Source: a virus
Direction: 5' to 3' (one strand)
Length of the DNA stretch: 51,914 bases
Virus record (IMG/VR): IMGVR_UViG_3300045988_086792
Within the stretch, counting starts at the first letter, position 1. Every line of letters begins with the position of its first letter. The notes beneath the pieces are model-generated. The model did no database searches, had not been told where the DNA came from, and saw only the letters and a list, made by a program, of their open reading frames with translations. The position numbers and the translations under genes are program-made. Shown here piece by piece: positions 3,581 to 48,606 of the stretch.

Positions 3581-3660
3581 AAATCCGTGCGCCGGTTGTC
3601 ATTGGGGCTACGTCCTGAACGAAGAGCAGGTCTATTGCCCTATGCCGAGGTGCGTCAAGG

Positions 3661-17196: not shown

Positions 17197-17207
17197 GGTG
17201 ATGAACT

Positions 17208-17411
17208 ATGGCGTACACGACGGTCAGCGGCGATATGTGGGACACCATTGCCAAGAAAGTCTATGGGGATGAGTATTGCGCGGATGCCCTGATGCAAGCA
17301 AACCCGGAGCAGATCGGAGTATTCCGATTTGACTCCGGTATTGTTTTGCAAACGCCAGAACTTGAAACAGAAAAGAGCGGCAGCCAGCCGCCGTGGAAGG
17401 TGAGCGGATGA
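17208..17411 (+). CDS. Tail protein X (LysM-like), P2 gpX family
   Basis: 67 aa. YTTVSGDMWDTIAKKVYGDEYCADALMQANP is a gpX/LysM-type motif. Confidence 0.7.
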   Translation: MAYTTVSGDMWDTIAKKVYGDEYCADALMQANPEQIGVFRFDSGIVLQTPELETEKSGSQPPWKVSG

Positions 17412-18649
17412 AACCAAGAAGCGCGGGTGTAAAGCTGATCTACAACGGGAAGAACATCACGAACAACACGGACATTGCAGGAGACATCGAAAGTGTTTCC
17501 TATGAGGGAAATGCGGCTGACAACAGCAACAATGTAAGCGTGACCATCAACGCGATGAAAGATAAATGGCTGAACAACTGGATGCCGGAGAAAGGTACGA
17601 CGCTTGACCCGACAATTCTTGTCTACAACTGGCCGGAAGAGGGACAGGGCAGCGAGATGAACGGCGGCGTGATGATCGTCGATGACATCAGTTACAGTGA
17701 TGCTCCCTGCACAATGACCATGAGCGCAGCGTCTAAGCCGAACGACACCAGCTTTTCCGAAGAGGACCGGGAGTATATCTGGAAAAACACTTCTATCCAG
17801 ACCATCGCACAGACCATTGCAGGACGCTATGGGCTGACGCTGGGCTTTGAGGGAACGGACGCGGAAATTGTAAAGCGAGAGCAGCAGGCCACGGATAGCG
17901 CGTTTCTGGATGAGCTGTGCAAGGATTATGGTTTGATCCTGAAAGTTTACTCGAAGCGGCTATGGATATATGACCGGGAAGCGTTCAAGAAAAAGGCTGT
18001 TGCCGCGACGATTGACCGGACAGACATTGTACCGGGGTCCTTTAGCTTTAGTGATGGCTTCGATGGTGTGTATACACATGGTATCTGGGAGTATTCCAAC
18101 CAGACCAAGGGGGTGAAAATTCGGGCAGAAATCGGAAGCAGCGGCAGGACGAAGCGTATCCAGAAGTATGCCTCCAGCCAAGCGGATGCCGAGCGGCGCT
18201 TGCAAGCCGCGATGAACAACGCCAACCACAGCGCAACGCAGGTGAAGTTCACGCTGGCGCTGGCTCAAATTGAATTGAGCGAGTCGCAGACAATCCAACT
18301 TACCGGGTATGGAAAGCTGTCCGGTAAGTATTTTATCGACAAGGTTTCGCTGACGTACAGCCGGAACGGCCTTGAGATGCAGCTGGAATGCAGCAAGGTT
18401 CCTGATGCTGAGACGACGAAAGTGTCTGCCGCCGGTGCAAGTGTGACGCTGAACAATGCGCCGCTCTACTATACCAGTGTGGACAAGAAGCCCGTCCGCA
18501 AGGTCAGCGGCCATTATTTCCTTTACGATGGTATCAATGTGGCGGGACGATACAGAATTACGAATCTGAAATCCCGCTGCGGAAAAACACCGGTCGGAAA
18601 AAATGTGACCGGCTGGGTCAATGCGGCAGATGTCGGAGGTGTGACCTGA
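17408..18649 (+). CDS. Tail/baseplate hub protein, P2 gpD (late control D) family
   Basis: 413 aa from ATG 17408 (ATGA overlap with the gpX stop). Synteny X-D-V. Confidence 0.6.
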   Translation: MKPRSAGVKLIYNGKNITNNTDIAGDIESVSYEGNAADNSNNVSVTINAMKDKWLNNWMPEKGTTLDPTILVYNWPEEGQGSEMNGGVMIVDDISYSDAPCTMTMSAASKPNDTSFSEEDREYIWKNTSIQTIAQTIAGRYGLTLGFEGTDAEIVKREQQATDSAFLDELCKDYGLILKVYSKRLWIYDREAFKKKAVAATIDRTDIVPGSFSFSDGFDGVYTHGIWEYSNQTKGVKIRAEIGSSGRTKRIQKYASSQADAERRLQAAMNNANHSATQVKFTLALAQIELSESQTIQLTGYGKLSGKYFIDKVSLTYSRNGLEMQLECSKVPDAETTKVSAAGASVTLNNAPLYYTSVDKKPVRKVSGHYFLYDGINVAGRYRITNLKSRCGKTPVGKNVTGWVNAADVGGVT

Positions 18650-19323
18650 TGGAAGACACGATTCGCTTTGGCAAAGTTTCCAACATCGACTATGCCGCAG
18701 GAAAGATGGAAGTTGCATACGAAGACCGGGAAGACAGCGTAACAGATATGCTTGGTATGCTGTCGAACCGGGAATACCAGATGCCGAAAGTCGGTGACAT
18801 TGTTGCGGTGATCCACAATTCCAACGGCGCGGAAGAGGGTATCGTGCTGGGCACACACTGGTCGGACACGAACCCGCCGCCGGAGGGCGAAGAAAAGCTC
18901 TACCGGAAAGACTATGACGAAGAACCGGGGAAGTGCATGACCCGGTACGACGGCCAGAAAGAAGAATTTCTTTTCCATACCGATGGCGAAGTGATAACTG
19001 AGATCAAGAAAGACCGGACGGAGACGGTGGAGCAAAACCAGAAGAGCACCGTCAAAGGCGACGCAACGCTGGAAGTTAAAGGCAAGCTGACTGTGAAAGT
19101 CGGGAGCTGCACCGTGACCATCCAAGGCGGCACGGTGGAAATCAAAGGAGGAGCAAAACTCAGCATGAGCGCTCCGACGATTTCCATTGACGGCAGTACG
19201 GTAAATATTACCGGCGGTGGCGGCGATGCAAAGATCGCTGGAATCAGTCTGGTAAATCATACCCACAAATACACTGCGCCGCTGCATCAGTCTGGATTGG
19301 CCGAGACTATAAAACCGACATAA
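18649..19323 (+). CDS. Baseplate assembly protein V / central spike
   Basis: 224 aa. FGKVSNIDYAAGKMEVAYEDREDSVTDMLGML...GDIVAVIHNSNGAEEGIVLG is a gpV OB-fold pattern. Confidence 0.7.
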   Translation: MEDTIRFGKVSNIDYAAGKMEVAYEDREDSVTDMLGMLSNREYQMPKVGDIVAVIHNSNGAEEGIVLGTHWSDTNPPPEGEEKLYRKDYDEEPGKCMTRYDGQKEEFLFHTDGEVITEIKKDRTETVEQNQKSTVKGDATLEVKGKLTVKVGSCTVTIQGGTVEIKGGAKLSMSAPTISIDGSTVNITGGGGDAKIAGISLVNHTHKYTAPLHQSGLAETIKPT

Positions 19324-19344
19324 CCGGGCAGGAGGTGAAGCTAG

Positions 19345-19737
19345 ATGTGGATTGGCTGTTTCGGCGAGCTGGTCTTTTCCGTAAGCAGCCGCAGGATTTT
19401 TACACCTGATGGAATCAGCGGGAGTACGGGCAGCGAATGGGCAACGCATAACGTCATTGGCGGAAAGCCGAAAAGCGAGATGACCGGAGCAAAGCTCAAG
19501 AAATACAAATTCACGGTTACGCTCGACTCCAAACTTGGAGAGCCGCCGCGCATTATGCTGGCGCTGATCCACAAGATGGTTGAAGAGGGCAGGGTTGACT
19601 ACCTGATTATCGGAAGCGCTCCGGTTGGAATGTGCCAATACAAGATGACGGATGTTTCGGAAGAATGGGAATGCGTCGTGGCGGGCGGGAAGCTGGTACG
19701 CTGCAAAGTTGAGATCACCTTGGAGGAATATGTATGA
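19345..19737 (+). CDS. Tail protein, P2 gpU-like
   Basis: 130 aa. FSVSSRRIFTPDGISGSTGSEWATHNVIGGKPKSEMTGAKLKKYKFTVTL fits the GpU-family pattern. Confidence 0.6.
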   Translation: MWIGCFGELVFSVSSRRIFTPDGISGSTGSEWATHNVIGGKPKSEMTGAKLKKYKFTVTLDSKLGEPPRIMLALIHKMVEEGRVDYLIIGSAPVGMCQYKMTDVSEEWECVVAGGKLVRCKVEITLEEYV

Positions 19738-20039
19738 CGCTTGGAACTGCACAGATCGTCTTTGAATCTTCGACCATAGAAGAAGCGGAAGATGTCTGCG
19801 AATGCCTGAAAGTGCTGTATTCCACAAGGGCCGGAGAGCTGGGGCTTGACCGGGACTTCGGGATTTCCGTGGATGCAGTTGACCGTCCAATCGCTGTTGC
19901 AAAAGCGCTCATCTCTGCCGAAATCGTCCGAAAGACCAAAAAATATGAGACCCGCGTTGAAGTTGCCCGCATTGAGTGGGACGACTCAAAAGTTGGCGGG
20001 GGAATTTTGATCCCAAAGGTGGTGTTGCAGAGTGTCTGA
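19734..20039 (+). CDS. Baseplate wedge protein, gpW/gp25-like
   Basis: 101 aa. LKVLYSTRAGELGLDRDFGIS is a GPW_gp25-type motif. Confidence 0.65.
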   Translation: MTLGTAQIVFESSTIEEAEDVCECLKVLYSTRAGELGLDRDFGISVDAVDRPIAVAKALISAEIVRKTKKYETRVEVARIEWDDSKVGGGILIPKVVLQSV

Positions 20040-21183
20040 AATTGCCCAGCTTAAAAATCTGCCAGAGATCAGCTTTATTGACAATCTCACGATGAAAGAG
20101 GTTGAAGAAATTGCAAAAAGCGGATACAGCGAGTCGGTCAAAGCAGCGACTGGCAAAACGCCAACGCTCTATCCGGCCAGCGTTCCGGCGGTAATCCTGA
20201 AAGAAATGACGCTGCTCGCATACCAGATTTTGCAGTATGTTGATGCCGGCCCGAAGCAGACGCTTTTGAAATACTCTGCTCATGAGAATCTGGACAATCT
20301 GGCCGGAAACTATGGCCTGACCCGGCGGCAGGCAGAAAAGGCTACGGTGACGATCCGCTTCACACTGGCGGACGCAAAGCAGCCCGGTGCCGTTGGCATT
20401 CCTGCGAAAACCCGCGTGAGAACTGAAGACGGCATCTACTTTGAAACGATGGAGTATGCGGAAATCTCACCCGGTTCCCAAAGTGTCGATGTGGAAGCCG
20501 AAGCGCTGGAAGAGGGCGCAGGTTCGTCCGGCATCGAAGAGGGTCAGATCAACCAACTGGTTGACCCGATTCCGTATGTTGCATCGGCGGTCAACGTGAC
20601 GGCCAGCAGCGGGGGAACAGACATCGAAAGCGATGATTCGCTGACGGAGAGAACGTATCTGGTTCCCTCTACCTACGGATGCGCAGGAACGCCGGACTCG
20701 TATGAGTATTTTGCGAAAGCATGGCGCAACGATGTGAAAGATGTGTCCGTGGAAAGCCCGTCTCCCTGTGTGGTGGATATTTATTTCACCTTGGCAGATG
20801 GCACGATTCCGAGCAAGGCAGACTGCGAAGCTATGCAGGAGCATCTGCGGGATGATGCCCGCCGCCCGCTGACGGATTTGGTGAACTGCAAAGCTCCGAC
20901 CGAGATCGAGTACAACATCAATGTCACCTATACCATCGCACAGAGTAAATCCAAAATTGCGATTACCGTTCAGAATGCGGTCAATGCAGCAATCGAAGAA
21001 TTCAAAGTGTGGCAGAGGTCAATGGGCAGAGATATTGACCCGGCGGAACTGATCGCGCAAATCAAAAACGCGGGAGCAAAGCGGGTGAAAATCACAGCAC
21101 CGACAGATGTTGTGGTGGCGAACACGCAGATTCCGAAGCTGGCAAGCTGCAACGTGGTGTACGGAGGGCTGGAAGATGACTGA
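20032..21183 (+). CDS. Baseplate protein J-like
   Basis: 383 aa, between the W-like and I-like genes. Confidence 0.75.
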   Translation: MSEIAQLKNLPEISFIDNLTMKEVEEIAKSGYSESVKAATGKTPTLYPASVPAVILKEMTLLAYQILQYVDAGPKQTLLKYSAHENLDNLAGNYGLTRRQAEKATVTIRFTLADAKQPGAVGIPAKTRVRTEDGIYFETMEYAEISPGSQSVDVEAEALEEGAGSSGIEEGQINQLVDPIPYVASAVNVTASSGGTDIESDDSLTERTYLVPSTYGCAGTPDSYEYFAKAWRNDVKDVSVESPSPCVVDIYFTLADGTIPSKADCEAMQEHLRDDARRPLTDLVNCKAPTEIEYNINVTYTIAQSKSKIAITVQNAVNAAIEEFKVWQRSMGRDIDPAELIAQIKNAGAKRVKITAPTDVVVANTQIPKLASCNVVYGGLEDD

Positions 21184-21811
21184 TCTCCGAGACGCGAGGC
21201 TGACGGATGTGCTTCCGAAGGCAGTTGCAGACCAGCAGGAGGCCAAGTCTCTGTCCGACGCATGGCATGACCTTACGGTGCTGATCCTTGATTTTGCAGA
21301 CAATGCGAAAATCTACACCGCCATCGACAGGGCATCGGATGAGCTGCTGGATATTCTGGCAGTTCAGTTCCGTACTCCAAGATACCGGCAGGATTACGAC
21401 ATTGAAACCAAGCGGCGCATGGTAAAGTCGTCGCTTCCGTATTACATGACCGTCGGCACAAAAGCAGCCGTGGAAGATGTCATGCGGGAAATGTACGGCA
21501 AGGCGTATGCGAAAGAATGGTTTGAGTACAACGGAACACCCGGCTGCTTCAGAATCAAAATCGACGCAGAAAAGCCTATTGACATTGAAGAACTGCTGGA
21601 CATTCTGCATCACGTCAAAAGGACAAGCGCCCATCTGGATACGCTGGAACTCTCCACAGAAGAAGTGCATGACCTCTTTTTCGGTTTTGCTTCTGTGACC
21701 GTTGGCAAGTGGTTTGGCTCCACGGTGAGCGGAGAAGAAACATTTGACTGGCTCGTAGATGCGGATGGGAATGCGCTGATGGATGCTGACAAAAATATCC
21801 TGACAGAATAG
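21176..21811 (+). CDS. Tail protein, P2 gpI-like
   Basis: Start at ATG 21176 (MTDLRDARLTDVLPKAV...), overlapping the J stop. ELLDILAVQFRTPRY motif. Confidence 0.7.
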   Translation: MTDLRDARLTDVLPKAVADQQEAKSLSDAWHDLTVLILDFADNAKIYTAIDRASDELLDILAVQFRTPRYRQDYDIETKRRMVKSSLPYYMTVGTKAAVEDVMREMYGKAYAKEWFEYNGTPGCFRIKIDAEKPIDIEELLDILHHVKRTSAHLDTLELSTEEVHDLFFGFASVTVGKWFGSTVSGEETFDWLVDADGNALMDADKNILTE

Positions 21812-21819
21812 GAGGAACA

Positions 21820-23310
21820 ATGTTTTTTCCGAAACTGATCCTTACGGATGCGGGCAGGGCGCTGATCGTAAAAGCGCTGAACGGAACCGCAATCAATTTT
21901 ACGAAGTTTGCGCTGGGCGATGGCACGGCTCCGAAAGAGCCGCGAAAGCTGAAAGCGCTGGTCCATCTGGCAGCCAATATGCAGATCAACAGCATTGAGC
22001 TTTCCGCAAACTGCGCAGTGCTGGAATCGACCTATACCAACAGTGGCTTGAAGTCAAAGCTGGTTGCGCGGGAGCTTGGCATCTTTGCCACAGACCCGGA
22101 TGAGGGAGAAATCCTCTATGCGTATGCCAATGCTGGAAGTGAAGCATCGGTCGTGCCGCCCGAAAGCGGCGATATGACTGTGCAGGAAACATTCCACATG
22201 GTTGTGACCGTGGGAGATGCAACGACCGTCACGGCAACATTGGGCGAGTATTCTGGTTATGCCAGCAAGGCAGACCTACAAAGCCATATTGACGACAAGA
22301 ATAACCCGCACAATGTCACGGCAGAGCAAATCGGCCTTGGCAATGTCCCGAATGTGACCCCGGCAAACCAGCAGCCGGTGTTCTCAAATGACTACATTAT
22401 GAAGTCGGATGGCTCCTATGATGTGCAGAACATCGCTTCCGGCGAAAAGATGGGAAATATCCTGCGCAAAATCCGCACAGCGGTTGCGGCATTTGTCGCA
22501 CACCTTTCTGCAAAGAATCCGCACAACATCTCAGCGGCGGATATTTCGGCGGCGGCGGAAGACCATAAGCACAGCGCGAACGATGTGACGACTGGAATTT
22601 TCCCTGTTTCCCGTGGCGGCACAGGTGCGGCGACGGCTACCGAAGCGAGAGAAAAACTTGGCGTTGCTGCAAAGGATCACAAGCACAATGCAAGCGATAT
22701 TCAGGGCGGAATGATTCCGGTTGCGAACGGCGGCACGGGTGCAAACAATGCTGCGTCGGCGTGCAGTAATCTTGGTGCGATGCGTACAGCGGGCGGAACA
22801 TTCAGTGGAACCGTTTATTTCGGCAGCAGCACATATTACGTCAACGCTTCCGGTGTGGCAAATTTCGCCAAGGCATATGGCGCAATGTACAACGATTACG
22901 CGGAGTTTTTTCCACGCGGCGGAAAAACTTCCCCCGGTGACATCGTTGCACTGGACGTGAGCAGCCAGAAAGAAAGATATGTCCGGGCAGATGCGGAAAG
23001 CCGTATGGTCGTCGGCATCCATTCGGATGAGTACGCTATGCTGATTGGCGGCGAGTCCGCGTTGGATGGCGAGGATTATGTAGAAAAGAACATCAAAAAT
23101 TATATCCCTGTTGCGCTGGCAGGCCGCGTTATGACGCGCGTGACCGGGCCGGTTCGCACCGGGGATATTATTATTCCGTCTGAATTTCCGGGTGTTGGCC
23201 GCGCCGCGATTGACGGGGACGCGCTTTCTTATTGGAACATCGTCGGATATGCTGTTGAGGGTGACAACCGCACAGATGAACGCAAGCTGCGCGTTCGAGT
23301 CGGGAGGTGA
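21820..23310 (+). CDS. Tail fibre protein (P2 gpH-like N-terminus)
   Basis: 496 aa. N-terminus FPKLILTDAGRALIVKALNGTAINFTKFALGDG. Repeated HKH(S/N)A.D...GGTGA units. Confidence 0.8.
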   Translation: MFFPKLILTDAGRALIVKALNGTAINFTKFALGDGTAPKEPRKLKALVHLAANMQINSIELSANCAVLESTYTNSGLKSKLVARELGIFATDPDEGEILYAYANAGSEASVVPPESGDMTVQETFHMVVTVGDATTVTATLGEYSGYASKADLQSHIDDKNNPHNVTAEQIGLGNVPNVTPANQQPVFSNDYIMKSDGSYDVQNIASGEKMGNILRKIRTAVAAFVAHLSAKNPHNISAADISAAAEDHKHSANDVTTGIFPVSRGGTGAATATEAREKLGVAAKDHKHNASDIQGGMIPVANGGTGANNAASACSNLGAMRTAGGTFSGTVYFGSSTYYVNASGVANFAKAYGAMYNDYAEFFPRGGKTSPGDIVALDVSSQKERYVRADAESRMVVGIHSDEYAMLIGGESALDGEDYVEKNIKNYIPVALAGRVMTRVTGPVRTGDIIIPSEFPGVGRAAIDGDALSYWNIVGYAVEGDNRTDERKLRVRVGR

Positions 23311-23316
23311 TGGAGG

Positions 23317-24186
23317 ATGGCAGTAAGCAGAGAAAATCTTATTTCTCCGCAGGATTATATCACGCTGAAAGAGCTGGTCAAGAAAGAAATTCAGCGCAGG
23401 AGCAATGCGGCAAGCGTTGGTTCCATGTCGGCCTATGCCGGGTCGAACTACGACTATTCCGTAACGCCTGCATCGAGAACCCAGAAGATCACAGACGAGC
23501 ATATCCAGAAGATCACGAAGCCGCTGGATGCGGTGACGGGCGGAAGCCTGACCCCGGCAGTACACGGGATGGTACTGGCAGAAGCGCTGAACTCGGCAGC
23601 GACCATGGTTGCTAACCTGTCGAAGAAAAGTGAAACATCTTCCGACACGGGATGCAAGGCGCAATGTTCGGGTCTGTGCTTTAGCAGCTGCTTTTCATCC
23701 TGCTCCGGTTGCACTGGAACTTGTACGGGAAGCTGTACTTCAAACTGCAAGGACTCCTGCACGGTGGATTGCACGGGGAGCTGCACCGGAACGTGCACTG
23801 GAACTTGTACGGGTAGTTGCTCTGACAGTTGTTCCGGTTGCGGCGGGTCTTGTTCCAATGACTGCACAGGAAGCTGTAAAGGGAATTGTCTGAACGGATG
23901 CAGTACGACATGTAAAAATGGCTGTTCAGGAAGCTGCAAGGGAACCTGCGATAGTACCTGTTCGGGTTCCTGCTCTGGCGACTGTTCCGGCTGCGGTGGC
24001 TCCTGCTCGAACGACTGTTCTGGCAGTTGCTCCGGCGACTGCACAGACGACTGCGAAACTTGCTATGCGGGGTGCGCCCGTGGCTGTGCGACTGGATGTC
24101 GAGATACTTGCTCGGTACAGTGCGACGATGAGGCGGCGTGTCATGGAACTTGCTCAGGAAATTGCTCTGGCGGATTTATGTGGTAA
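23317..24186 (+). CDS. Cys-rich CXXX-repeat protein (putative radical-SAM substrate; possibly structural)
   Basis: 289 aa. After residue 112 I count 44 Cys, almost all with a 4-residue period (CTGSCTGTCTGTCTGSCSDSC...). SD GGGAGGTG. Confidence 0.8.
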   Translation: MAVSRENLISPQDYITLKELVKKEIQRRSNAASVGSMSAYAGSNYDYSVTPASRTQKITDEHIQKITKPLDAVTGGSLTPAVHGMVLAEALNSAATMVANLSKKSETSSDTGCKAQCSGLCFSSCFSSCSGCTGTCTGSCTSNCKDSCTVDCTGSCTGTCTGTCTGSCSDSCSGCGGSCSNDCTGSCKGNCLNGCSTTCKNGCSGSCKGTCDSTCSGSCSGDCSGCGGSCSNDCSGSCSGDCTDDCETCYAGCARGCATGCRDTCSVQCDDEAACHGTCSGNCSGGFMW

Positions 24187-24200
24187 GGGTGGAAAGCGAT

Positions 24201-24794
24201 ATGAAAGAAAAAATCGTTCCCAATATGGAGCCGTTGTTTCTCTCTTATGAACGGCATAAGTGCTTGTGCGGATTCCTGACGATGCAGCACTTCAGCTCGG
24301 AAGATTTCGCAAAGGAGCTTCGGTATCTGCCGGATGAGAACAAGTTCTATCACGGCCTGTGTTACCTTGGCCTTTATCAGAATATCGGCGTTGATGATTT
24401 TTCCGCATGGCTGGACAATGCCCGGTCGGCGATTTCTGCCTTGGCGGAAGCCTGCGGACTGGAATTTGAAAACAATGTGGAAAAGGAACTGTATGCGTGG
24501 GGGCTTGCGGCAAGGAGTTTTCCGTTCGACGAATGGCACTCGGCGTTCCCGGTAGACGAAGAGGTGCTGCATTCTTTTATGGAAATGCAGATCGACACGA
24601 AGGAAAAAGTCTGGGCATTTTACAATGTCGGGACGGCGGCGCTGGATAAGATGGAGTTCACGCGGGGAGAGCAGAGGGACGCGTCACTGTTCATTCAGCT
24701 CATGAAAAAGACGCTGGATGCCAAAACGGACTACGAAACCCTCAAGAAAATCCATTACGACATGGAGAAAGGCGGAATCGTCTATGGAGAATGA
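24201..24794 (+). CDS. Hypothetical protein of the CXXX/rSAM cassette
   Basis: 197 aa from ATG 24201, 15 nt after the CXXX gene stop. No recognisable motif. Confidence 0.55.
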   Translation: MKEKIVPNMEPLFLSYERHKCLCGFLTMQHFSSEDFAKELRYLPDENKFYHGLCYLGLYQNIGVDDFSAWLDNARSAISALAEACGLEFENNVEKELYAWGLAARSFPFDEWHSAFPVDEEVLHSFMEMQIDTKEKVWAFYNVGTAALDKMEFTRGEQRDASLFIQLMKKTLDAKTDYETLKKIHYDMEKGGIVYGE

Positions 24795-25083
24795 AAAAAC
24801 TTTCATGCTGGCTGAAAGAGAGAACCTTTTGGTCGAGCGGCTGAATTACATCTTTGAGAGCAACCGCGCCATGGTAGCCATCTTGGCGCGGGAACTGGCC
24901 GGTGCGGAGAACACAACAGCGAAAGAAATGTTGCTGGAAGAAAAAGAAAGCTGCAAGCGGGCATTTCTTGAACTGCGTGTGGCGCAGGATGCTGTGCTGG
25001 ATGCAAAATTTTCCGGTCATCGCCCGGATAATATCCAGTTCAAATTCGACTTTCCCAACCGGGAGGTGACGTGCCAGTGGTGA
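24784..25083 (+). CDS. Hypothetical helical protein of the CXXX/rSAM cassette
   Basis: 99 aa. Overlaps the upstream stop by 11 nt and the rSAM start. Confidence 0.5.
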   Translation: MENEKTFMLAERENLLVERLNYIFESNRAMVAILARELAGAENTTAKEMLLEEKESCKRAFLELRVAQDAVLDAKFSGHRPDNIQFKFDFPNREVTCQW

Positions 25084-26411
25084 AGAAAAGCAAGATGTTC
25101 CGTCGCGGGGAGGACTACACGAATTTTGTACAGCGAATGTACCCCAAAACGGAAAATGGCGGCGTGGCCTGCCGGAACATTACATTCCAGATCACCGATG
25201 ACTGCAACATGAGATGCTCGTACTGCTATGAGCACCACAAAGCCTGCGGTGCAATGAGCTTGAAAACGGGCAAGCAGGTGGTGGACTACCTGCTGAACCT
25301 GTATGAACAGAACGACTCCGATTTCATCAATCAGCATACGAAAGGCGTTGTGTTGGACTTCATCGGCGGAGAGCCGCTGCTGGAAGCGGCGTTGATCGAG
25401 AGAATCTGTGATTACTGGTTTGCAGAGTGCTGGCGGCGCAAAATCCCGCTGGGGCCGTACACCCGCATTTCCTTTGCGACAAACGGCCAGTTGTGGTTCT
25501 CCCCGGCGGCGCAGCACCTTTTCCACAAGTACCATGATCTCATGTCGGTCACGGTGAGCATCGACGGCATCAAGGAGCTGCACGACAAGTACCGGCTGGA
25601 TGTGAACGGTATCGGCAGCTTCGACAAAGCATGGGCGGCGTTTCAGGATGGCAAGAAGTACGGCTGGCTGAACAGCAAGATGACGTTTGTGCCAGACAGT
25701 TTCAGTTACATCTACCCCAGCATCAAGATGATGGCAGAGCAGGGCTGCAAGGAAATCCATTGCAACTATGCACATGAGCCGGAGTACACGGAGGCTGACG
25801 CGGCTGCACTGTACCGGGAGCTGAAACGTGTGGCGGATTACCTCATCGGCGAAGCACCAGATGTCTGGGTGAGCATTCTGGGAGAACAGATCGGCAACCC
25901 GCACCCGGAAGACAAGAACTGGTGCGGCGGTACGGGTGCGATGTTGTCTTTCGCACCGGACGGAAAGGCGTATCCGTGCATCCGGTACGCACCAATCTCC
26001 GTCGGCAAAGAACTGGCCGCGCCGATGTGCCTTGGCAACTGCCGGGACGGCCTTTATACCACGGAGCAGCAGCGGAAGACCAAAGAAATGCTGGACGCGA
26101 TCACACTCACCACGCAGTCCACACAGGAATGTATCGACTGCCCGGTGGCGACCGGCTGTTCTTGGTGTTCCGGCTTCAACTATGAGGTCTACGGAACGCC
26201 CAATAAGCGCGTAACAAGAATCTGCAAGGCGCACAAGGGCCGCGTGCTGGCATCGTGCTACTTCTACAACCTGCGCAGCATCAAGTTGAGCGATGCAGAG
26301 CCGAAGAAAATCAACCTGCCCCGCGAAGAGGTTGAGCGGCTGATCGGAAAGCCGGAAGCGGATGCGCTGTTTGCTCTTGAAAAGGAGGCGGCGGAGCAAT
26401 GGGAATGGTAA
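25077..26411 (+). CDS. Radical SAM enzyme with C-terminal SPASM domain (peptide/protein maturase, anSME-like)
   Basis: CNMRCSYC (CxxxCxxC, nt 25203-25226). GGEPLL. SPASM-type C-x12-G-x4-C and CIDCPVATGCSWC. The start could be 25071, 25077 or 25095. Confidence 0.85.
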   Translation: MVKKSKMFRRGEDYTNFVQRMYPKTENGGVACRNITFQITDDCNMRCSYCYEHHKACGAMSLKTGKQVVDYLLNLYEQNDSDFINQHTKGVVLDFIGGEPLLEAALIERICDYWFAECWRRKIPLGPYTRISFATNGQLWFSPAAQHLFHKYHDLMSVTVSIDGIKELHDKYRLDVNGIGSFDKAWAAFQDGKKYGWLNSKMTFVPDSFSYIYPSIKMMAEQGCKEIHCNYAHEPEYTEADAAALYRELKRVADYLIGEAPDVWVSILGEQIGNPHPEDKNWCGGTGAMLSFAPDGKAYPCIRYAPISVGKELAAPMCLGNCRDGLYTTEQQRKTKEMLDAITLTTQSTQECIDCPVATGCSWCSGFNYEVYGTPNKRVTRICKAHKGRVLASCYFYNLRSIKLSDAEPKKINLPREEVERLIGKPEADALFALEKEAAEQWEW

Positions 26412-26659
26412 AACTGCCCGAAAAGGAACTGGCAACGGCATTCGCGGCGGCAGACTACATTCTGATCGTGCAGAAACGCACTGACGGAAAGCTGGACATC
26501 CGCCGTGCTACGCCGGAGCAGGTGGCAAAGGTGGTCGGTGACACGCTGGAAATCCAGAAGATCAAGGAAAACCAGAACAATGTAAAGCTGACCGCTACCA
26601 CCGATGCGCAGGGCGTTGTGACGCTTTCGCTTGGAGGTAGGACCGCATGGAAAACGTGA
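26399..26659 (+). CDS. Hypothetical fibre-module protein
   Basis: 86 aa. SD AAAGGAGG. Overlaps the rSAM stop. Confidence 0.5.
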   Translation: MGMVKLPEKELATAFAAADYILIVQKRTDGKLDIRRATPEQVAKVVGDTLEIQKIKENQNNVKLTATTDAQGVVTLSLGGRTAWKT

Positions 26660-26889
26660 TTCGCACAAAGTATGTCCGGGTTGACGGCGTACTGTACCAG
26701 CTTGTTGATGGAGAAGTACCGGAATGGGCGAAAGAAGAAGTCCCGGATGCCACCTTACTGCAAGAGGGCAAGGCGGCGGATGCCAAGAAAACCGGACAGG
26801 AAATCCAAAAACTGAAAGACCGACCGCATTTTTTCTACGATGAAGAGGGATACCTTACTTTCGACGATGGACGGGAGGAAGAACAATGA
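26647..26889 (+). CDS. Hypothetical fibre-associated protein
   Basis: 80 aa. DATLLQEGKAADAKKTGQEIQKLKD resembles motifs seen in fibre proteins of Firmicutes phages. Confidence 0.5.
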   Translation: MENVIRTKYVRVDGVLYQLVDGEVPEWAKEEVPDATLLQEGKAADAKKTGQEIQKLKDRPHFFYDEEGYLTFDDGREEEQ

Positions 26890-28625
26890 ATACTCACATG
26901 GCATCGGATGAATCCTTGATTAAGATTTTCAACGCTGTGTCTGGCTCCGCGCTGTCTGCCGCCGGTGACGGCAGAACCGCCGTACTGGCAACGGGCAATG
27001 TGGATGCAATCGACGGCTTCTACAACATGATGGCGAAAAAGGCAACCACGCAGAAAGAGATGAACGCACTGTTCATCGACTGGTGGACGGCGAACTGGGA
27101 CCCGACTTTGAGCACCTACAACGGGATGCTGGAACGCTGGTTCGGCACAGTCCTGAATGACAACCGTGTGCATGGCGTGAAGTTCCCGCTGTTCAGCACG
27201 TCCAATACGGCAATCGGCGAGCTGACCGATGACAGCGTTGGTCTGGCCTGCTCTCCTTCTACGGCAACCACGGCCAGCGTGGACGATTTCGCCGCCCTGC
27301 CGCAGTTCTGGTGCGTCGAAGTTGCGGCAGAGAAGAACGCAGACGGCAGCCACACCATTTACGCCTGCCAGTACATCGACGATGACGATGTGGTGCGTGG
27401 CTCGAACCATCTGGTGTGGGTGCTTCAGAAGAACACCTTTACCCGTGAGCGCAACGAGAACGGCTACCGCATTTTCAAGATGCGCTGCAACCCCTCGGCG
27501 GGCTATGAACAGTGGCCGCAGGGTACGGACCGCACCGGAAAGGTCTATCCGTATATCGCCAACCCCAAATATTTTGCCGGTATGCAGGATGACGGCAAAA
27601 TCGGCGGACACACCGGCCTTGCCCCGGTCAACTATACATCGCACACCAAGGGCGTGCAGCTCTGGCGGCAGCGCGGTCCTCAGTATGCGGGCGCATCTGG
27701 CCGCACCCTGAAATGGCAGCTCCGCATGATCTGGCTGAAATATGCCCGTAAGGGTAACTCCGGTACGATTGAGGGTTGCACCTCTTACAACTATCAGTAC
27801 CGCGCAGCATTCAGCGCGGAGAGCGTGAACTACTTCCCGCTGACCGCTGCACAGGCGGCGAATCTGCTGGTTGGTTCGTGGGTCGCAATCGGCAGCCACA
27901 ACAAAGACACGACCGACCGAAACGATGCCAGTCTGCACGACATCCTGACCGAAGCGCAGATCACCCGCATTGAGGACATCGCAGTGGATGATGTGACCTA
28001 CAAGGCCATCTATGTGGACAGCGGTGACGCAACGTGGGATGTGGTGAAGGATCAGTCCATGATCTCCACCATGCCCTACGGCAGCGGCTACAACGATACC
28101 GTGCTGGGCAATGACGGCAGCCGCACCAACTACACCAACGGCAAGGAACCCGGCCTGATCCAGAAGACGGAGTTCCAGAACGGTGCATATCTGATCGTGG
28201 CGGACGAGCTGTGGAAGTGGGACAAAGACGGCGACGGCAACTATACGTTCGACGTTTACACCTGCCACGACCAGACGAAGATCACCACGGACGGCACTAT
28301 TTCGGCGGACTATACCAAGTGCGAAGACCTGACCCTGCGCTTTGCGGATGGTACGCCGAACGCATGGCAGTGTATCGAGGATACTGCCATCAGCGGTGAC
28401 CCGGCGGTGCTGTGGCCTGCTGCTGTTTCAAACCGCGCTGGCAGTGGTACGGGCGTTAAGGCTGGCTTCTACGTCCATCCGGCGGCGTCCGGTGTCCGCG
28501 CGGCTTGGCGGTGCTGCGCCTTGGCCGACGGCGGCTACGCGTCTTTGGCGGCGGCGCCCTCGGGCAGCTGGGTCGGTTACGCGAACTGGCACGGCGGGGT
28601 CGGTGTGCCTGATCTCGCTGGGTAA
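26886..28625 (+). CDS. DGR target (variable) protein, putative receptor-binding protein
   Basis: 579 aa. The last 55 codons contain the VR (GFYVHPAASGVRAAWRCCALADGGYASLAAAPSGSWVGYANWHGGVGV). Confidence 0.85.
   Translation: MNTHMASDESLIKIFNAVSGSALSAAGDGRTAVLATGNVDAIDGFYNMMAKKATTQKEMNALFIDWWTANWDPTLSTYNGMLERWFGTVLNDNRVHGVKFPLFSTSNTAIGELTDDSVGLACSPSTATTASVDDFAALPQFWCVEVAAEKNADGSHTIYACQYIDDDDVVRGSNHLVWVLQKNTFTRERNENGYRIFKMRCNPSAGYEQWPQGTDRTGKVYPYIANPKYFAGMQDDGKIGGHTGLAPVNYTSHTKGVQLWRQRGPQYAGASGRTLKWQLRMIWLKYARKGNSGTIEGCTSYNYQYRAAFSAESVNYFPLTAAQAANLLVGSWVAIGSHNKDTTDRNDASLHDILTEAQITRIEDIAVDDVTYKAIYVDSGDATWDVVKDQSMISTMPYGSGYNDTVLGNDGSRTNYTNGKEPGLIQKTEFQNGAYLIVADELWKWDKDGDGNYTFDVYTCHDQTKITTDGTISADYTKCEDLTLRFADGTPNAWQCIEDTAISGDPAVLWPAAVSNRAGSGTGVKAGFYVHPAASGVRAAWRCCALADGGYASLAAAPSGSWVGYANWHGGVGVPDLAG
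28459..28608 (+). repeat. DGR variable region (VR)
   Basis: 150-nt alignment to 28717-28866 at offset 258. There are 15 differences, every one at a TR adenine. Confidence 0.9.
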
Positions 28626-28640
28626 AGACGGGGTGAATTG

Positions 28641-28656
28641 CCCGGATACTTCCGGG
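28641..28656 (+). promoter_or_regulatory. Hairpin downstream of the VR (candidate DGR target-recognition stem-loop)
   Basis: CCCGGA-TACT-TCCGGG, a 6-bp stem with a 4-nt loop, 32 nt after the VR/TR homology ends. Confidence 0.45.
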
Positions 28657-28660
28657 CAAG

Positions 28661-28681
28661 AGGGGCAGTCAGCCCCTTTTT
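28661..28681 (+). terminator. Intrinsic terminator after the DGR target gene
   Basis: AGGGGC-AGTCA-GCCCCT followed by TTTTT. Confidence 0.65.
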
Positions 28682-28716
28682 GACGATATAGAGATTTTGG
28701 GATGTATGGTGTCCAC

Positions 28717-28866
28717 AGGCTGGCTTCTACGTCAATCCGGCAGCGTCCGGTGTCCGCGCGGCTTGGCGGTGCTGCAACTTGAACAACGGCGGCAACGCGT
28801 CTTTGGCGGCGGCGAACTCGAACAACTGGGTCGGTAACGCGAACTGGAACGGCGGGGTCGGTGTGC
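28717..28866 (+). repeat. DGR template repeat (TR)
   Basis: Non-coding copy of the VR with 25 adenines and 11 AAY codons in the VR frame. 125/125 non-A positions are identical to the VR. Confidence 0.9.
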
Positions 28867-29068
28867 AACTGGTTCAAAAAATCATCATTCATTGCATCAT
28901 ATATTCCACGCTTATGTGCGAAAATTTCTTGAAACCAGCATCACGGCGCTGCGTCCGCAGGAAAGGGCGGGTCCATCCGTGGCGGCAGGACAAGGAACCT
29001 GCTGGCGGCTAGTAGCATAGGCCGAAAGGCTGAACCCGAAAGCCGTTGAAGAACCAGATGATTTTTAT

Positions 29069-30304
29069 ATGAAAACTTATTGTAAACCGAAAGATGTTGA
29101 CATTGAGGATACCAATTTCAACATGGAAGCGGTGCATTGTGCATTCGGAAATGGAAAGCTCCGGCGGCGGGATTTCAGAACGGTTTTGACAAAGACCGGG
29201 AAAATCTCGGAACCGGAGCTGTTTTATGAGCGGAAAGAGCACAAGTGCCACAAGATCATTGATGCCATTGACGCGGTGGCTGAACAGGAAACGCAGAAGA
29301 TTCGGGACGAATGCCTGAACCTGAAACCGGTCCGGCAGTTCAAACGCATTGACGGAACCAAGATGAAAGAGCGAAATCTCTGTCAGGAGTCGCCGGAACA
29401 GCAGGTGCATGAATACATCCTCGTTCATGCACTTCAACCGCTGTTCCGCGCAAAGTTCCTGCCGGCCCAATTCGGGAGCATCCCGGGAAAAGGACAAGTG
29501 GCTGGAACCAGACTGATCGAGCGGATCATCCGAAAGAGAATCCTCGGAAAACTGGATGCGGTAAAAGGCGACGTGCATCATGCGTACCCATCCACCACGA
29601 CGCTCTGCGTCATAACGCTGCTGAAACGCGACGTCGGGAAAAACAAAAAGCTGATCTGGTATGCCGGGGCGGTGACAGAAAACTACCCGGACGGCGTTCT
29701 TCTGATTGGCGGATATTTCTCAACATGGGCGTTCAACTACATTATGAGCTACGTCCTGCGCTATCTGATGTCTCTGGTGCAGGTGCGCCGGGGCAGCGGG
29801 TCTAAGCTGGTGCGGGAAATCGTGTGCTATGCAGATGATTTTGTGCTTATCGGGCACGCTTCGCAGCTCATGAAAGCAATGAAGAAAGCAACGAGGTGGG
29901 CAAAGTCTGCGCTGGGGCTTGAGATCAAACGGGCATGGCAGGAAGTGCGGTTTGCATCTTTCGAGAAAGAAAAACAGGTGAAAGCCGCGCGGGCGGCGGG
30001 CAGCCATTACCGGACACCGGCGTTGGACATGATGGGATTTGCGGTACGCCGCACCTATACCATCGTCCGCAAAGGAGTATTCCGCAGAATCCGGCGGCAG
30101 CTGCTCCGCGCCGCTCGTGATCTTGCAACGCTTGGATTTGTTCCGCATTGGAGAGCATCCAAACTGACGGCTTACAATGGTTGGTTTACAAACAGCGACA
30201 GTACAAACCTTGAGGAAAAGTACGATGTCGAGAAAATCATGCGGGCGGCGCGATGGAGCGTTGCCCGCTGGTCTATGATCCAGAACAGGAGGAAAGCAGC
30301 ATGA
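29069..30304 (+). CDS. DGR reverse transcriptase
   Basis: 411 aa. YADDFVLIG (motif C). LLIGGYFSTWAFNY (IGxxxS-type motif). It starts 202 nt after the TR. Confidence 0.85.
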   Translation: MKTYCKPKDVDIEDTNFNMEAVHCAFGNGKLRRRDFRTVLTKTGKISEPELFYERKEHKCHKIIDAIDAVAEQETQKIRDECLNLKPVRQFKRIDGTKMKERNLCQESPEQQVHEYILVHALQPLFRAKFLPAQFGSIPGKGQVAGTRLIERIIRKRILGKLDAVKGDVHHAYPSTTTLCVITLLKRDVGKNKKLIWYAGAVTENYPDGVLLIGGYFSTWAFNYIMSYVLRYLMSLVQVRRGSGSKLVREIVCYADDFVLIGHASQLMKAMKKATRWAKSALGLEIKRAWQEVRFASFEKEKQVKAARAAGSHYRTPALDMMGFAVRRTYTIVRKGVFRRIRRQLLRAARDLATLGFVPHWRASKLTAYNGWFTNSDSTNLEEKYDVEKIMRAARWSVARWSMIQNRRKAA

Positions 30305-30687
30305 AAGAAATCTATTCGTTCCAGCCGGAAGCGGTCGAGGTGTTCCGCGTAGGTGACGATACCGACTTGATCCTGCGCAAGAACATCGAGAAGCAGCAGA
30401 TGACCGACGATGAGGGTAAGGCGTATACCGTTTACGCCTGCGATGAACGGCAGGTGCGCTACGCCGGGGTGCTGACCGCCGAAGAGGTCCAGAAGAACTT
30501 CGACAAGTGGTGGGACTATGCGCCGCCCACGCCCGTGCCCGTGCCGGAGAAAAAGAAGTTGGAAGACCGGGTGAAAGAGCTGGAAGCGCAGAGTACCACC
30601 ATGGCAGACCAGCTCACCAGTACCCAGATGGCACTTTGCGATGTGTACGAACAGGTGCTGAGCGCAACCAGCACCGCCACAGAATGA
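30301..30687 (+). CDS. Hypothetical protein (XkdW-position)
   Basis: 128 aa from ATG 30301 (ATGA overlap with the RT stop, SD CAGGAGGA). The C-terminus is coiled-coil. Confidence 0.55.
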   Translation: MKEIYSFQPEAVEVFRVGDDTDLILRKNIEKQQMTDDEGKAYTVYACDERQVRYAGVLTAEEVQKNFDKWWDYAPPTPVPVPEKKKLEDRVKELEAQSTTMADQLTSTQMALCDVYEQVLSATSTATE

Positions 30688-30704
30688 GCACGGAGGTATG
30701 AACT

Positions 30705-30830
30705 ATGAGCACTGACTACATGGCGACGGTCTATGCAGACCTGATCCGCAAGGGCAAGAAGACTCTGGCGCAGGTGCCGAAGAGCTTGCAGAAAAAGGTG
30801 AAAGCCCTGCTGGCGGAGGATAACAAGTGA
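30705..30830 (+). CDS. Small CD1375-like phage protein, copy 1
   Basis: 41 aa: MSTDYMATVYADLIRKGKKTLAQVPKSLQKKVKALLAEDNK. SD GGAGG 7 nt upstream. Below the ORF-track size cutoff. Confidence 0.55.
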   Translation: MSTDYMATVYADLIRKGKKTLAQVPKSLQKKVKALLAEDNK

Positions 30831-30883
30831 GTATCCTTCGCGAGCTGATGCTTAAAATCTTGCTGAGAAAGGAGGTGGACGTG

Positions 30884-31000
30884 ATGGCAGTTGTCTATGC
30901 TACCCTTATCATCAAGGGCAGGAAGACCATTGATCAGGTTCCGGCAATCATCCGGGATGAGGTCAAGCAGATTCTGAAGGACCTTGAGGTTGAGGTCTGA
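30884..31000 (+). CDS. Small CD1375-like phage protein, copy 2
   Basis: 38 aa: MAVVYATLIIKGRKTIDQVPAIIRDEVKQILKDLEVEV, a paralogue of copy 1. SD AAGGAGGTGG. Confidence 0.55.
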   Translation: MAVVYATLIIKGRKTIDQVPAIIRDEVKQILKDLEVEV

Positions 31001-32287: not shown

Positions 32288-33633
32288 AATTCAACGGTGA
32301 AAATGTTGAGAAGTTGCCTAATTGAAAATAGCTGGGAAGTGGGTTATTATTGAAATGCGAAGAAATGCGAAAGAATGCGACACGAAAGGAGGTAAAACAG
32401 TGTGAGAACATTCCGGCATTTGACGTGGATAGACCGACTTCGGATTGAAAAATGGCTGAGGCAGGGACTAAAACCAAAGGACATTGCAGGAAAACTGAGA
32501 GTGCATATCTCGACGGTGTACAATGAACTGCGCCGGGGAGCATATGAAAAGTTGGACAGTGACACATGGGAGCTGGTGCAGGCGTACAGCCCGGACATTG
32601 CAGAGCAGAAATATCAAGCGCATTTAAGGGAAAAAGGCCCGGACTTGAAAATTGGTAAAGACCATGAGCTTGCCAATTATATTGAAACCACAATCCTTGA
32701 TAAAGAATGTAGTCCGGCGGCGGTGCTTGGCTATGCAAAGCAGGAGGGCAGATGTTTTCAGACGAGCGTTTCCGTGCAAACGATATACCACTATATCCAG
32801 AAAGGCTTGTTTCTAAACCTGACTCAAAAAGAGCTGCCCCGGCACGGAAAGCGGAAACAGCCGTACAAAAAAGTCTGCAAAAAAGCGTCGGCCCGCGCAC
32901 CAGCAGGAGAAAGCGTTGAGCAGCGTCCGCCGGAAGTCAACGACCGGGAAGAGTTCGGACATTGGGAGGGCGATACGGTGTATAGCGGCAAGGGAAAGGT
33001 TAAAACTACCTGCGCACTGTTCACGATGACAGAACGCAAAACCCGAAACGAGATTATTATAGGTGTGCCGAACCGGAAAGCAGAAACCATTGTGCGGGCA
33101 GTCGATGCACTGGAACGGAAACTGGGAGCAAGAAAGTTCCGCGCGATTTTCAAGAGCATCACGTTTGATAATGGAACGGAGTTTGCAGCGGCGGAGAGCT
33201 TGGAACGGTCGTGTATCAACAAGACCATTCCCCGAACGAGAGTCTATTACTGCCACCCCTATTCATCGTGGGAACGCGGTAGCAATGAACACGTTAATGG
33301 AATGATCCGGCGCAGGCATCCGAAAGGAACGGATTTCTCTAAGGTGTCCAAGGAAGAAATCGCGGCGACCGAGAAGTGGATCAATGAGTACCCACGGCGG
33401 ATTTTTGGGTACAAGAGCAGCGCGATTATGTTCCAAGAGTGCTTAAACGAACTAGGCATCGCCATCTGAAAACAGGGCAGACCTGCACAAAAACGGGAGG
33501 CGGAGAGCGAAAATATGATGAATTGAATAGGCAAACGGGAAGCTGCAAGAAAAAATAACGTCTTGGCGGCTTATTTGCGATTATGCAAAATAAATAGAAT
33601 TTTTGCAAAAATTTTGGAGAATTTAACGGTTGA
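32288..33633 (+). mobile_element. IS30-family insertion sequence (boundaries approximate)
   Basis: Carries the transposase gene. Near-palindromic AATT(C/T)AACGGT boxes at 32288-32300 and 33619-33633 flank it. It is AT-richer than the phage backbone. Confidence 0.55.
32402..33469 (+). CDS. IS30-family DDE transposase
   Basis: 355 aa. N-terminal HTH. GHWEGD, FDNGTEF and ERGSNEHVNG catalytic-region motifs. Confidence 0.85.
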   Translation: MRTFRHLTWIDRLRIEKWLRQGLKPKDIAGKLRVHISTVYNELRRGAYEKLDSDTWELVQAYSPDIAEQKYQAHLREKGPDLKIGKDHELANYIETTILDKECSPAAVLGYAKQEGRCFQTSVSVQTIYHYIQKGLFLNLTQKELPRHGKRKQPYKKVCKKASARAPAGESVEQRPPEVNDREEFGHWEGDTVYSGKGKVKTTCALFTMTERKTRNEIIIGVPNRKAETIVRAVDALERKLGARKFRAIFKSITFDNGTEFAAAESLERSCINKTIPRTRVYYCHPYSSWERGSNEHVNGMIRRRHPKGTDFSKVSKEEIAATEKWINEYPRRIFGYKSSAIMFQECLNELGIAI

Positions 33634-45917: not shown

Positions 45918-46007
45918 AAATTCGGACGGGAAAGATTACGCAACTGTGAAGCATTTCCGAAAAGTCTGAAAATGCCGTGGGGAAACAACTCGAATACCCG
46001 GAACGAT

Positions 46008-46057
46008 GAAAAATGAGCAAAGAAATACCCGGCGGGCTGCGTGGCCTGCCGGGTATT
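46008..46057 (-). terminator. Terminator of the leftward island
   Basis: 10-bp stem AATACCCGGC/GCCGGGTATT. On the minus strand it is followed by TTCTTTGCTCATTTTT. Confidence 0.6.
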
Positions 46058-46062
46058 GTTCT

Positions 46063-46437
46063 CTATATGTCGTTCTCGCTGTTTGGTGCATGGCGCTTGA
46101 TGATGATTCTGGGGTTACCTGCATCGGTTGGTGTGCCCTCTTTGGCGATACGGTCAAGCAGACCGGTGGGAAAGCCTTGCTCATCCAGCGGGCCGGCATA
46201 TCCGTCGTAGTCAACGACCGTTACGACCGGTGGCTGCGGCAGGGCTTTATAGTATTGCCCATCTTCATAGTTTGCATCGGTAACACGATCCCACCATACA
46301 ATGTCGCCGTGCTGGGTCTGGGCGGCGCTCATCGCGTCTACGGCCTGCCGCTCGGTCAAACCGTCGAACGTCAGGCGGGAGCCGTCGGAAAATGCGCCAA
46401 CAATGCGCCAAGGGGCGAAAAACTCCGTTTCACTCAC
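46063..46437 (-). CDS. Hypothetical protein (island gene a)
   Basis: 124 aa, GTG start, SD AAATGAGGTG. It has its own upstream TGTTATACT extended -10 at about 46520. Confidence 0.55.
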   Translation of the reverse strand: MSETEFFAPWRIVGAFSDGSRLTFDGLTERQAVDAMSAAQTQHGDIVWWDRVTDANYEDGQYYKALPQPPVVTVVDYDGYAGPLDEQGFPTGLLDRIAKEGTPTDAGNPRIIIKRHAPNSENDI

Positions 46438-48578: not shown

Positions 48579-48606
48579 GTTGCAAAACTCCTTTCGTGGG
48601 CTGTAA

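Follow-up and report, generated by a model that had tools for sequence, protein, structure and literature searches.

The viral sequence IMGVR_UViG_3300045988_086792 from IMG/VR (51,914 nucleotides [nt]; this whole stretch of DNA is referred to here as the window) carries at positions 23317 to 26411 four genes that begin with a protein rich in regularly spaced cysteines and end with a radical S-adenosylmethionine (rSAM) enzyme of the SPASM type. We conclude that these genes constitute a phage-adapted, diverged CXXX-repeat maturation system, lodged in the distal part of the tail fibre as an exchangeable module, in temperate, contractile-tailed phages that infect Faecalibacterium and Gemmiger. 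The terminase, portal, major head, sheath, tape measure, baseplate, and fibre genes in the window identify a contractile-tailed phage, and all of them lie on the + strand, as do the cassette features described below.

Genes of the cassette

The first gene (23317-24186) encodes a protein of 289 amino acids (aa) whose 44 Cys are confined to residues 113 to 283. The 43 gaps between successive Cys comprise 38 of four residues, four of three, and one of six; when the C-terminal part was shuffled 20,000 times, the maximum number of gap-4 spacings was 13, and no shuffle (0/20,000) came near the real protein. The first-pass annotation of this DNA had reported 44 Cys at a four-residue period following an ordinary N terminus of about 112 aa, and that description holds. 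It had also reported three SGC-GGSC-SNDC units, and here it overcounted: the exact series CSG-CGGS-CSND occurs only twice (aa 172-183 and 223-234), the third CSG running into CTGT. One CET unit is also present. Cys density in the array is 25%, with small polar residues between the Cys and few Lys or Arg; the first position after Cys is mainly S, T, or K, the second is Gly in half of the units, and the third is S, T, D, G, or N. On the DNA of the array, Tandem Repeats Finder reports merely three 12-nt arrays of about two copies each, so the periodicity is kept at the protein level and does not reflect recent DNA slippage. The mirror open reading frames (ORFs) that overlie the array (23454-24044 on the - strand and 23609-24250 on the + strand in other frames, including a PEQ-rich ORF of 196 aa) are by-products of its repetitive codon composition and not genes.

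Three parts of the Cys-repeat protein can be distinguished. The N-terminal domain (aa 1-112; 23317..23652) is phage specific and strongly conserved (alignments A4 and A7), with the motifs E-I-x-RR, SVGSM..Y.G, and EHIQKIT.PLDA. It has no Pfam or NCBIfam match, is modelled by AlphaFold at low confidence as three helices, and occupies the position held by a twin-arginine translocation (Tat) signal in the canonical, cellular targets of this type. The array itself (44 Cys, aa 113-283; 23653..24165) is the presumed substrate region and is assigned to TIGR04114 and phrog_6085. The Cys-repeat protein scores 25.7 bits with the TIGR04114 repeat model, passing the cut-off of 20, and 25.4 bits with the target paralogue family TIGR04117 (Syntroph_Cxxx), under the cut-off of 50 bits. 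The C-terminal tail, SGGFMW plus the stop codon (24166..24186), repeats the pattern of canonical Tat-type targets, CSGG followed by a hydrophobic or aromatic ending; examples are GGFMW, GFLW, GLWLY, and GFWLM in phage targets and GGAIFVSY or GGVVFVSY in canonical ones. Among relatives, the array varies from 13 to 64 Cys (proteins of 158 to 372 aa), and the length of the N-terminal domain is constant.

The last gene (25071..26411) encodes the rSAM/SPASM maturase, to which TIGR04115, Pfam Radical_SAM and Fer4_12, and phrog_1802 are assigned. It may start at GTG 25071 or GTG 25077, and the sequence GGAGG at 25062-25066 favours the latter. Numbered from GTG 25071, the motif CNMRCSYC provides the radical-SAM Cys C45, C49, and C52 (CX3CX2C at nt 25203-25226), and seven SPASM Cys follow inside nt 25923-26225, arranged as C285-x12-G-x4-C303, C354-x2-C-x5-C-x2-C366 (C354/C357/C363/C366), and C385. 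None of these Cys varies within the phage clade or in the canonical enzyme. The first-pass annotation had thus read both the radical-SAM cluster and the SPASM pattern in 25077-26411 correctly. It had further mentioned an rSAM family with a CXXX-repeat target; this family exists as NCBIfam TIGR04115, "radical SAM peptide maturase, CXXX-repeat target family," and is the top NCBIfam family of the phage enzyme (E = 5e-93, 312.4 bits, model positions 2-359 of 359). These rSAM and target families were reportedly defined by Haft and Basu in 2011.

Other families score far lower: 141 bits for PapB, 82 for CcpM, 76 for SCIFF, 70 for QhpD, and 48.5 for sulfatase maturases. The enzyme was checked for grouping with sulfatase maturases or cofactor enzymes, and it groups with neither. 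A sulfatase-maturase reading is rejected because TIGR03942 gives 48.5 bits against a cut-off of 349, and a cofactor-enzyme reading is likewise rejected on NCBIfam scores; the anaerobic sulfatase-maturating enzyme (anSME) in the PDB matches at E = 3e-5 over the rSAM core only. The best solved relative is CteB (5wgg; E = 1.2e-17). The aligned region of CteB begins at residue 96, which means that no N-terminal recognition domain (RRE, the recognition element of maturases of ribosomally synthesized and posttranslationally modified peptides [RiPPs]) is fused to the phage enzyme; only about 35 aa precede CX3CX2C. Phage-clade enzymes also have a C-terminal extension of about 50 aa (LRSIKL...EKEAAEQWEW; nt 26250-26411, residues ~395-446) that is absent from the canonical enzyme and could be a phage-specific docking element.

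The two ORFs between these genes are real conserved genes, and their products evolve fast. Likely true starts are ATG 24201 for orfB (24201..24794, 197 aa) and ATG 24784 for orfC (24784..25083, 99 aa); both appear to encode accessory proteins of the cassette. In alignment A2, orfB proteins share 10-32% identity and no conserved Cys. No Pfam, NCBIfam, PHROG, or PDB match to orfB was found, and no relatives were detected beyond this phage group. A reading of orfB as a diverged TIGR04119 protein was rejected (hhalign P = 0.44, conserved Cys absent).

The orfC family comprises only 25 clusters among 1.84 billion representatives. Its AlphaFold model is confident (predicted local distance difference test [pLDDT] score of 95.3) and has a beta-alpha-alpha-beta-beta order, in which a long helical hairpin packs against a sheet of three strands. 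A Foldseek search of the PDB with this model gave only generic helical hairpins (best E = 0.24), and a PqqD-like RRE was dropped as a candidate for that reason; structural matches in BFVD were limited to uncharacterised phage proteins, and a profile search against PDB sequences gave nothing meaningful. Lax NCBIfam scans (E <= 10) of all orfB and orfC family members returned no TIGR04116 or TIGR04119 match, and no cassette protein matched TIGR04119 at that level. When orfC was aligned by hhalign with a TIGR04116-like profile, P was 0.037, and with a deeper profile 0.0013 (probability 18%), compared with values of at least 0.058 for about 34 controls. In size and position, too, orfC agrees with TIGR04116 (~90 aa). 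On these profile comparisons, orfC may be a diverged counterpart of TIGR04116, the "CXXX repeat peptide modification system protein."

Overall, we are highly confident of the identity of the cassette components. The array is a bona fide CXXX target type, and the enzyme is an rSAM/SPASM protein of the thioether-maturase clade.

Conservation of the cassette and its link to the tail fibre

Searched with the rSAM protein, viral contigs yielded 18 loci (61-99% identity), to which a faecal phage contig from GenBank adds one; the order of tail fibre, Cys-repeat protein, ORF of ~195 aa, ORF of ~100 aa, and rSAM is the same in all 19. An independent search with the N-terminal domain of the Cys-repeat protein alone matched 146 viral contigs; 80 were retained, and counts refer to those with enough flank. 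Downstream of the Cys-repeat gene, orfB, orfC, and rSAM were present in 64/64 loci, and immediately upstream a tail-fibre homologue was present in 67/67. Neither search revealed a homologous phage with the Cys-repeat gene and no rSAM gene, or the reverse. Gene junctions from the fibre through the target gene of the downstream diversity-generating retroelement (DGR) are gaps of 6-14 nt or overlaps, with a Shine-Dalgarno-like sequence before each gene; within 17000-31000, promoter- and terminator-like sites do not exceed the frequency seen after shuffling. The earlier suggestions of a single coupled cassette of four genes, placed between a tail fibre gene and a DGR gene, are upheld by the perfect co-occurrence, the constant order, the tight or overlapping junctions, and the annotated flanks: genes for baseplate and tail fibre precede the cassette, and a genuine DGR follows it.

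The gene directly upstream (21820-23310) encodes a protein that as a whole has PHROG tail-fibre matches (phrog_7037, 3e-37). Only its C-terminal ~180-220 aa (residues ~275-496; 22642..23310) are conserved in every lineage (67/67) and always accompany the cassette, with N-terminal parts being exchanged. The core of this domain reads NDYAEFFPRG..PGDIxALD..GxHxDExAxLIGG..YIPVxLAGRV..VGYAVEGD. A search with the baseplate J-like protein identified 12 relatives that carry the module and three IMG/VR contigs (L201-L203, 79% baseplate identity) that do not. The three lack all five parts, that is, the fibre C-terminal domain, the Cys-repeat protein, orfB, orfC, and rSAM, and because these are missing jointly, the five parts behave as one exchangeable distal-fibre module. 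The four genes and the fibre C-terminal domain are a co-inherited unit within the late structural operon.

This specific covariation is what would be expected if the modified Cys-repeat protein, together with orfB and orfC, formed a chaperone or scaffold that folds or trimerises the fibre C-terminal domain and is absent from the mature particle. Genes directly downstream of tail-fibre genes commonly encode fibre chaperones, and the fast evolution of orfB and orfC is as seen for fibre-specific partners. The fibre domain itself weakly resembles the intramolecular chaperone (IMC) autoproteolytic domain of Pfam PF11962, Peptidase_G2 (4/10 members, best E = 0.0015); a profile search with it gave no PDB sequence match. 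As a lead only, this resemblance raises the idea that the domain may be of the intramolecular-chaperone type and be cleaved off after fibre assembly. However, a chaperone has no obvious need for 13 to 64 enzymatically modified Cys or for an array of variable length, and arrays of this type are also found in Tat-exported proteins of cells, which have no fibre to fold. We consider a role limited to assembly unlikely.

In the position of the module, the three contigs that lack it carry other fibre-like ORFs, a 583-aa protein ending in WWLRSPYY... (another DGR-type target), and a different reverse transcriptase (RT). Judged by these sequences, DGR-bearing fibre modules are swapped between the phages. 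The DGR of the window extends over 26886-30304, with a variable repeat (VR) at 28459-28608, a template repeat (TR) at 28717-28866, and the RT gene at 29069-30304. TR and VR are 150 nt long and ~90% identical, and mismatches within the repeat all fall at TR adenines. The VR is the 3' end of a 579-aa ORF (26886-28625; phrog_17147), and the RT has RVT_1 and group-II-RT matches, both weak. Downstream of the structural operon, a 355-aa ORF (32402-33469) matches phrog_4646, "transposase" (E = 9e-127), and could stem from a mobile element or serve a replication function of the transposition type. G+C content rises to 0.58-0.62 in 46000-51914 and 1-1000, and AT skew is negative from ~46 kb, which suggests an opposite-strand gene block or host flanking DNA at the ends of the window.

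A scan of genome contigs covering close relatives (Faecalibacterium and Gemmiger) placed the hosts in Faecalibacterium, with six species-level genomes, one of them a complete F. prausnitzii chromosome, and in Gemmiger formicilis. A prophage of this kind lies in F. prausnitzii strain 2 (NZ_CP186691, locus L026). Gut metagenomes contain many relatives, with 1,452 proteins at E <= 1e-20, and some protein clusters have from hundreds to >2,000 members. At least one metagenome relative is already named automatically as "CXXX-repeat target family [Caudoviricetes sp.]."

Counterparts in cells and in jumbo phages

The canonical system is illustrated by locus L028 (MT837480, 2222-6270), which encodes a 174-aa CXXX target with a Tat signal (SRREFFK), a TIGR04115 rSAM enzyme, TIGR04119 ("CXXX repeat peptide maturase"; 321 aa, 235 bits, SPASM-like C terminus), TIGR04116 ("modification system protein"; 91 aa, 105 bits), TatA, and TatC. 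We found 80 further loci in gut and rumen metagenomes, most of which repeat this set of partners, with TatC in 55. MT837480 was deposited as an "UNVERIFIED Bacteriophage sp." contig; because near-identical loci lie on contigs of up to 3.79 Mb, it is probably cellular DNA.

Phage and canonical systems share the architecture of the enzyme, including all cluster Cys (38% identity), a target adjoining the rSAM gene, and possibly the accessory protein of ~90-100 aa (P = 0.0013). Their targets share array composition, the opening C.G.C[SY]GLC, and the ending CSGG plus hydrophobic or aromatic tail, a similarity that speaks for substrates that are homologous and undergo the same chemistry. The two systems also differ. 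In the phage, the Tat signal and TatA/TatC are replaced by the 110-aa N-terminal domain and orfB, and the setting is a tail-fibre module as opposed to a chromosomal export locus. In the cellular relatives, a Tat signal with dedicated TatA and TatC fits a substrate that is matured, and becomes non-threadable, in the cytoplasm before export. Phage assembly is cytoplasmic, so the phage version does not need export.

Tat export also bears on the idea that the CXXX repeats bind metal ions or Fe-S clusters, as a metallothionein-like protein or a metal column in the fibre, and that the rSAM enzyme does not crosslink the Cys. A Tat signal on the cellular homologues would suit the export of cofactor-loaded proteins, although it suits a precrosslinked, non-threadable protein equally well. 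Iron-binding phage fibres and spikes are known, and the Cys density of the array, with its small polar residues, is in keeping with metal binding. Against it stand the 64/64 tie to an rSAM/SPASM enzyme whose nearest characterised relatives make Cys thioethers and the absence of any metallothionein or ferredoxin family match in Pfam or NCBIfam. We regard a metal array as improbable.

The pairing of enzyme and array recurs in a second group of phages. At 26% identity, the phage rSAM matches a protein that Salmonella phage SPN3US and many Erwinia, Cronobacter, and Proteus jumbo phages encode under the name "radical SAM superfamily protein 1"; the best NCBIfam family of this protein is again TIGR04115 (126 bits; phrog_1802). 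In SPN3US (NC_027402), Erwinia phage Phobos, and pEa_SNUABM_29, two tandem CXXX ORFs (positions 3094-3486 and 3497-3901 of locus L029, 3178-3564 and 3577-3975 of L190, and 3100-3492 and 3502-3903 of L191, respectively) lie just upstream of a pair of rSAM genes (gp163 and gp164 in SPN3US). The CXXX ORFs encode 128-134 aa with 20-21 Cys, 86% of them at spacing 4, and array composition is essentially identical in the phage, canonical, and jumbo-phage contexts. One of the two ORFs, on the complement strand of NC_027402 at roughly 143.83-144.22 kb, is unannotated in the SPN3US RefSeq record, and the two Erwinia records have opposite-strand ORFs called instead; such genes are easily miscalled because the reverse complement is also open.

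The jumbo-phage genes adjoin a "virion structural protein" gene and that of the giant tail protein gp168. SPN3US gp168 has been related to phiKZ gp131, which lies at the baseplate periphery and is possibly fibre associated (PMC5105663). The jumbo-phage system differs in having two short targets, a different N-terminal part, and a second, small rSAM gene, and none of its accessory proteins (gp161, gp162, gp165, and the small rSAM) resembles orfB, orfC, or the N-terminal domain. What recurs between the jumbo phages and the Faecalibacterium phages is only the pair of enzyme and array, together with the fibre neighbourhood. The gene neighbourhood proposed as a check in the first-pass annotation is thus conserved among relatives and recurs independently in jumbo phages.

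Both sets of counterparts bear on a further alternative, in which the N-terminal domain is a long leader and the array a core, and the product is a RiPP-like bacteriocin, signal, or host-interaction factor freed at lysis, the genes being a "moron" in the fibre region. The rSAM/SPASM enzymes of this clade are classically RiPP maturases, the invariant motifs of the N-terminal domain resemble a recognition leader, and the canonical relatives are Tat secreted. In addition, the accessible portions of the published SPN3US virion proteomics and its supplements do not mention the Cys ORFs or gp165-gp167. The strongest argument on the other side is twofold: the module is gained and lost together with the fibre C-terminal domain (67/67 coupling), and the cassette has no protease or exporter, indeed no Tat, export, or leader-removal genes at all. 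The genes are also translationally coupled inside a late structural operon, the pair recurs beside baseplate-fibre genes in strictly lytic jumbo phages, and 158-372 aa is far above typical RiPP size. A released product is, in our view, quite unlikely.

Proposed function and comparison with known systems

Our tentative preference, which we place just short of an even chance, is that the Cys-repeat protein is a tail-fibre-associated virion protein stapled by multiple Cys thioethers. That the rSAM enzyme acts on the array we infer from the definition of its family and the perfect co-occurrence of the two genes; that the products are thioethers is suggested by analogy with PapB and CteB. For Cys-derived thioether crosslinks as the chemistry, we see the balance as even, and location of the protein in the virion seems to us a toss-up as well. 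The suggestion of a virion component in the first-pass annotation does agree with strong evidence from gene context.

Late in infection, the fibre C-terminal domain, the Cys-repeat protein, orfB, orfC, and rSAM would be expressed from the structural operon. The enzyme, having no fused recognition domain, would probably depend on orfC and/or orfB and on the 110-aa N-terminal domain of its substrate, and it may work processively from unit to unit of the CXXX array within the anaerobic cytoplasm of the host. Many of the 13 to 64 Cys would thereby be converted to intramolecular crosslinks, most likely Cys-S-to-carbon thioethers such as those made by PapB and CteB. The stapled, length-variable product, presumably resistant to proteases and redox change, would serve together with the distal tail fibre; its most probable form is a rod or appendage carried by the virion. 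A broader proposal, possible but doubtful, is that two unrelated phage lineages, the temperate Faecalibacterium/Gemmiger myoviruses and the lytic enterobacterial jumbo phages, use rSAM enzymes to staple a Cys ladder into a crosslinked, length-tunable tail-fibre rod.

Several points weigh against a stapled virion protein. The silence of the available SPN3US proteomics noted above runs counter to a virion location. The canonical relatives are exported, so products of the family could act outside any particle. The enzyme's 312.4 bits lie under the curated TIGR04115 cut-off of 350, as do the 280-303 bits of five phage-clade relatives, compared with 629 bits for the cellular homologue at L028 (280-312 bits for the phage clade as a whole); the phage enzymes are therefore a diverged sister group and not inside the curated family. 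The cassette, unlike the canonical system, has no TIGR04119 protein. At position i+4 from a Cys, the array has Cys in 38/43 spacings, and Asp is only occasional in the array, so the acceptor geometry of PapB (Cys-x3-Asp) is inapplicable and the geometry must differ. Finally, AlphaFold2 prediction of the Cys-repeat protein from 17 homologues (mean pLDDT 39, array ~30) gave no confident fold for the array.

The type of system is already known in the form of database models. What sets the phage form apart is the subthreshold enzyme clade, the new N-terminal domain, the accessory proteins, the integration with the tail fibre, and the loss of TIGR04119 and Tat. A literature search found nothing relevant on the CXXX-repeat family, its chemistry, or phage combinations of rSAM and tail fibre. 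Enzymatic stapling of a tail-associated protein by a phage is not known to have been described. If true, it would mark the first case of a virion structural protein crosslinked by an enzyme in the manner of a RiPP and give a first functional hold on the CXXX-repeat family, as well as a new principle of virion construction and a scaffold chemistry with dozens of thioether staples per protein.

The CXXX-repeat rSAM family has so far been defined only by genome context, and a diverged branch of it is now tied to a concrete setting, an exchangeable module of the distal tail fibre in abundant prophages, whose host, Faecalibacterium, is a dominant commensal of the human gut. The enzyme-target pairing also exists in cultivable, genetically tractable jumbo phages such as SPN3US. 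Even as an assembly factor or a released product, the cassette would offer an accessible substrate-enzyme pair for solving the chemistry of the family. The jumbo-phage Cys ORFs that are missing or on the wrong strand in deposited genomes expose, in addition, a blind spot in annotation, which had concealed the parallel system in these phages.

Among characterised systems, PapB, the freyrasin ranthipeptide maturase (NF047865), is the second-best family of the phage enzyme, with a full-length alignment at 141 bits. PapB makes Cys-to-Asp/Glu thioethers, several per substrate, in a repeated motif, the acceptor being a carboxylate residue on the C-terminal side of the Cys (PMC12373016). The phage enzyme nevertheless scores far under the PapB cut-off of 340, and the PapB substrate is a short peptide, in contrast to a phage protein of 158-372 aa. 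CteB, the SCIFF/thermocellin maturase (PDB 5wgg/5why), shares the rSAM core and SPASM clusters and forms thioethers; it differs in its N-terminal recognition domain, missing from the phage enzyme, which reaches only 76 bits with the SCIFF model TIGR03974 against a cut-off of 425. For rSAM/SPASM-made Cys thioether crosslinks in a protein subunit, as opposed to a small peptide, QhpD/QhpC is the precedent. Here, too, the relationship is distant (TIGR03906, 70 bits against a cut-off of 453), the substrate is different, and there is no repeat array or phage context. The HK97 capsid chainmail, in turn, is a precedent for a virion component stabilised by covalent crosslinks, which in that case are autocatalytic isopeptide bonds. 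In the phage cassette, where a virion location is suggested by gene context, a dedicated radical enzyme and a tail-associated Cys array would take their place.

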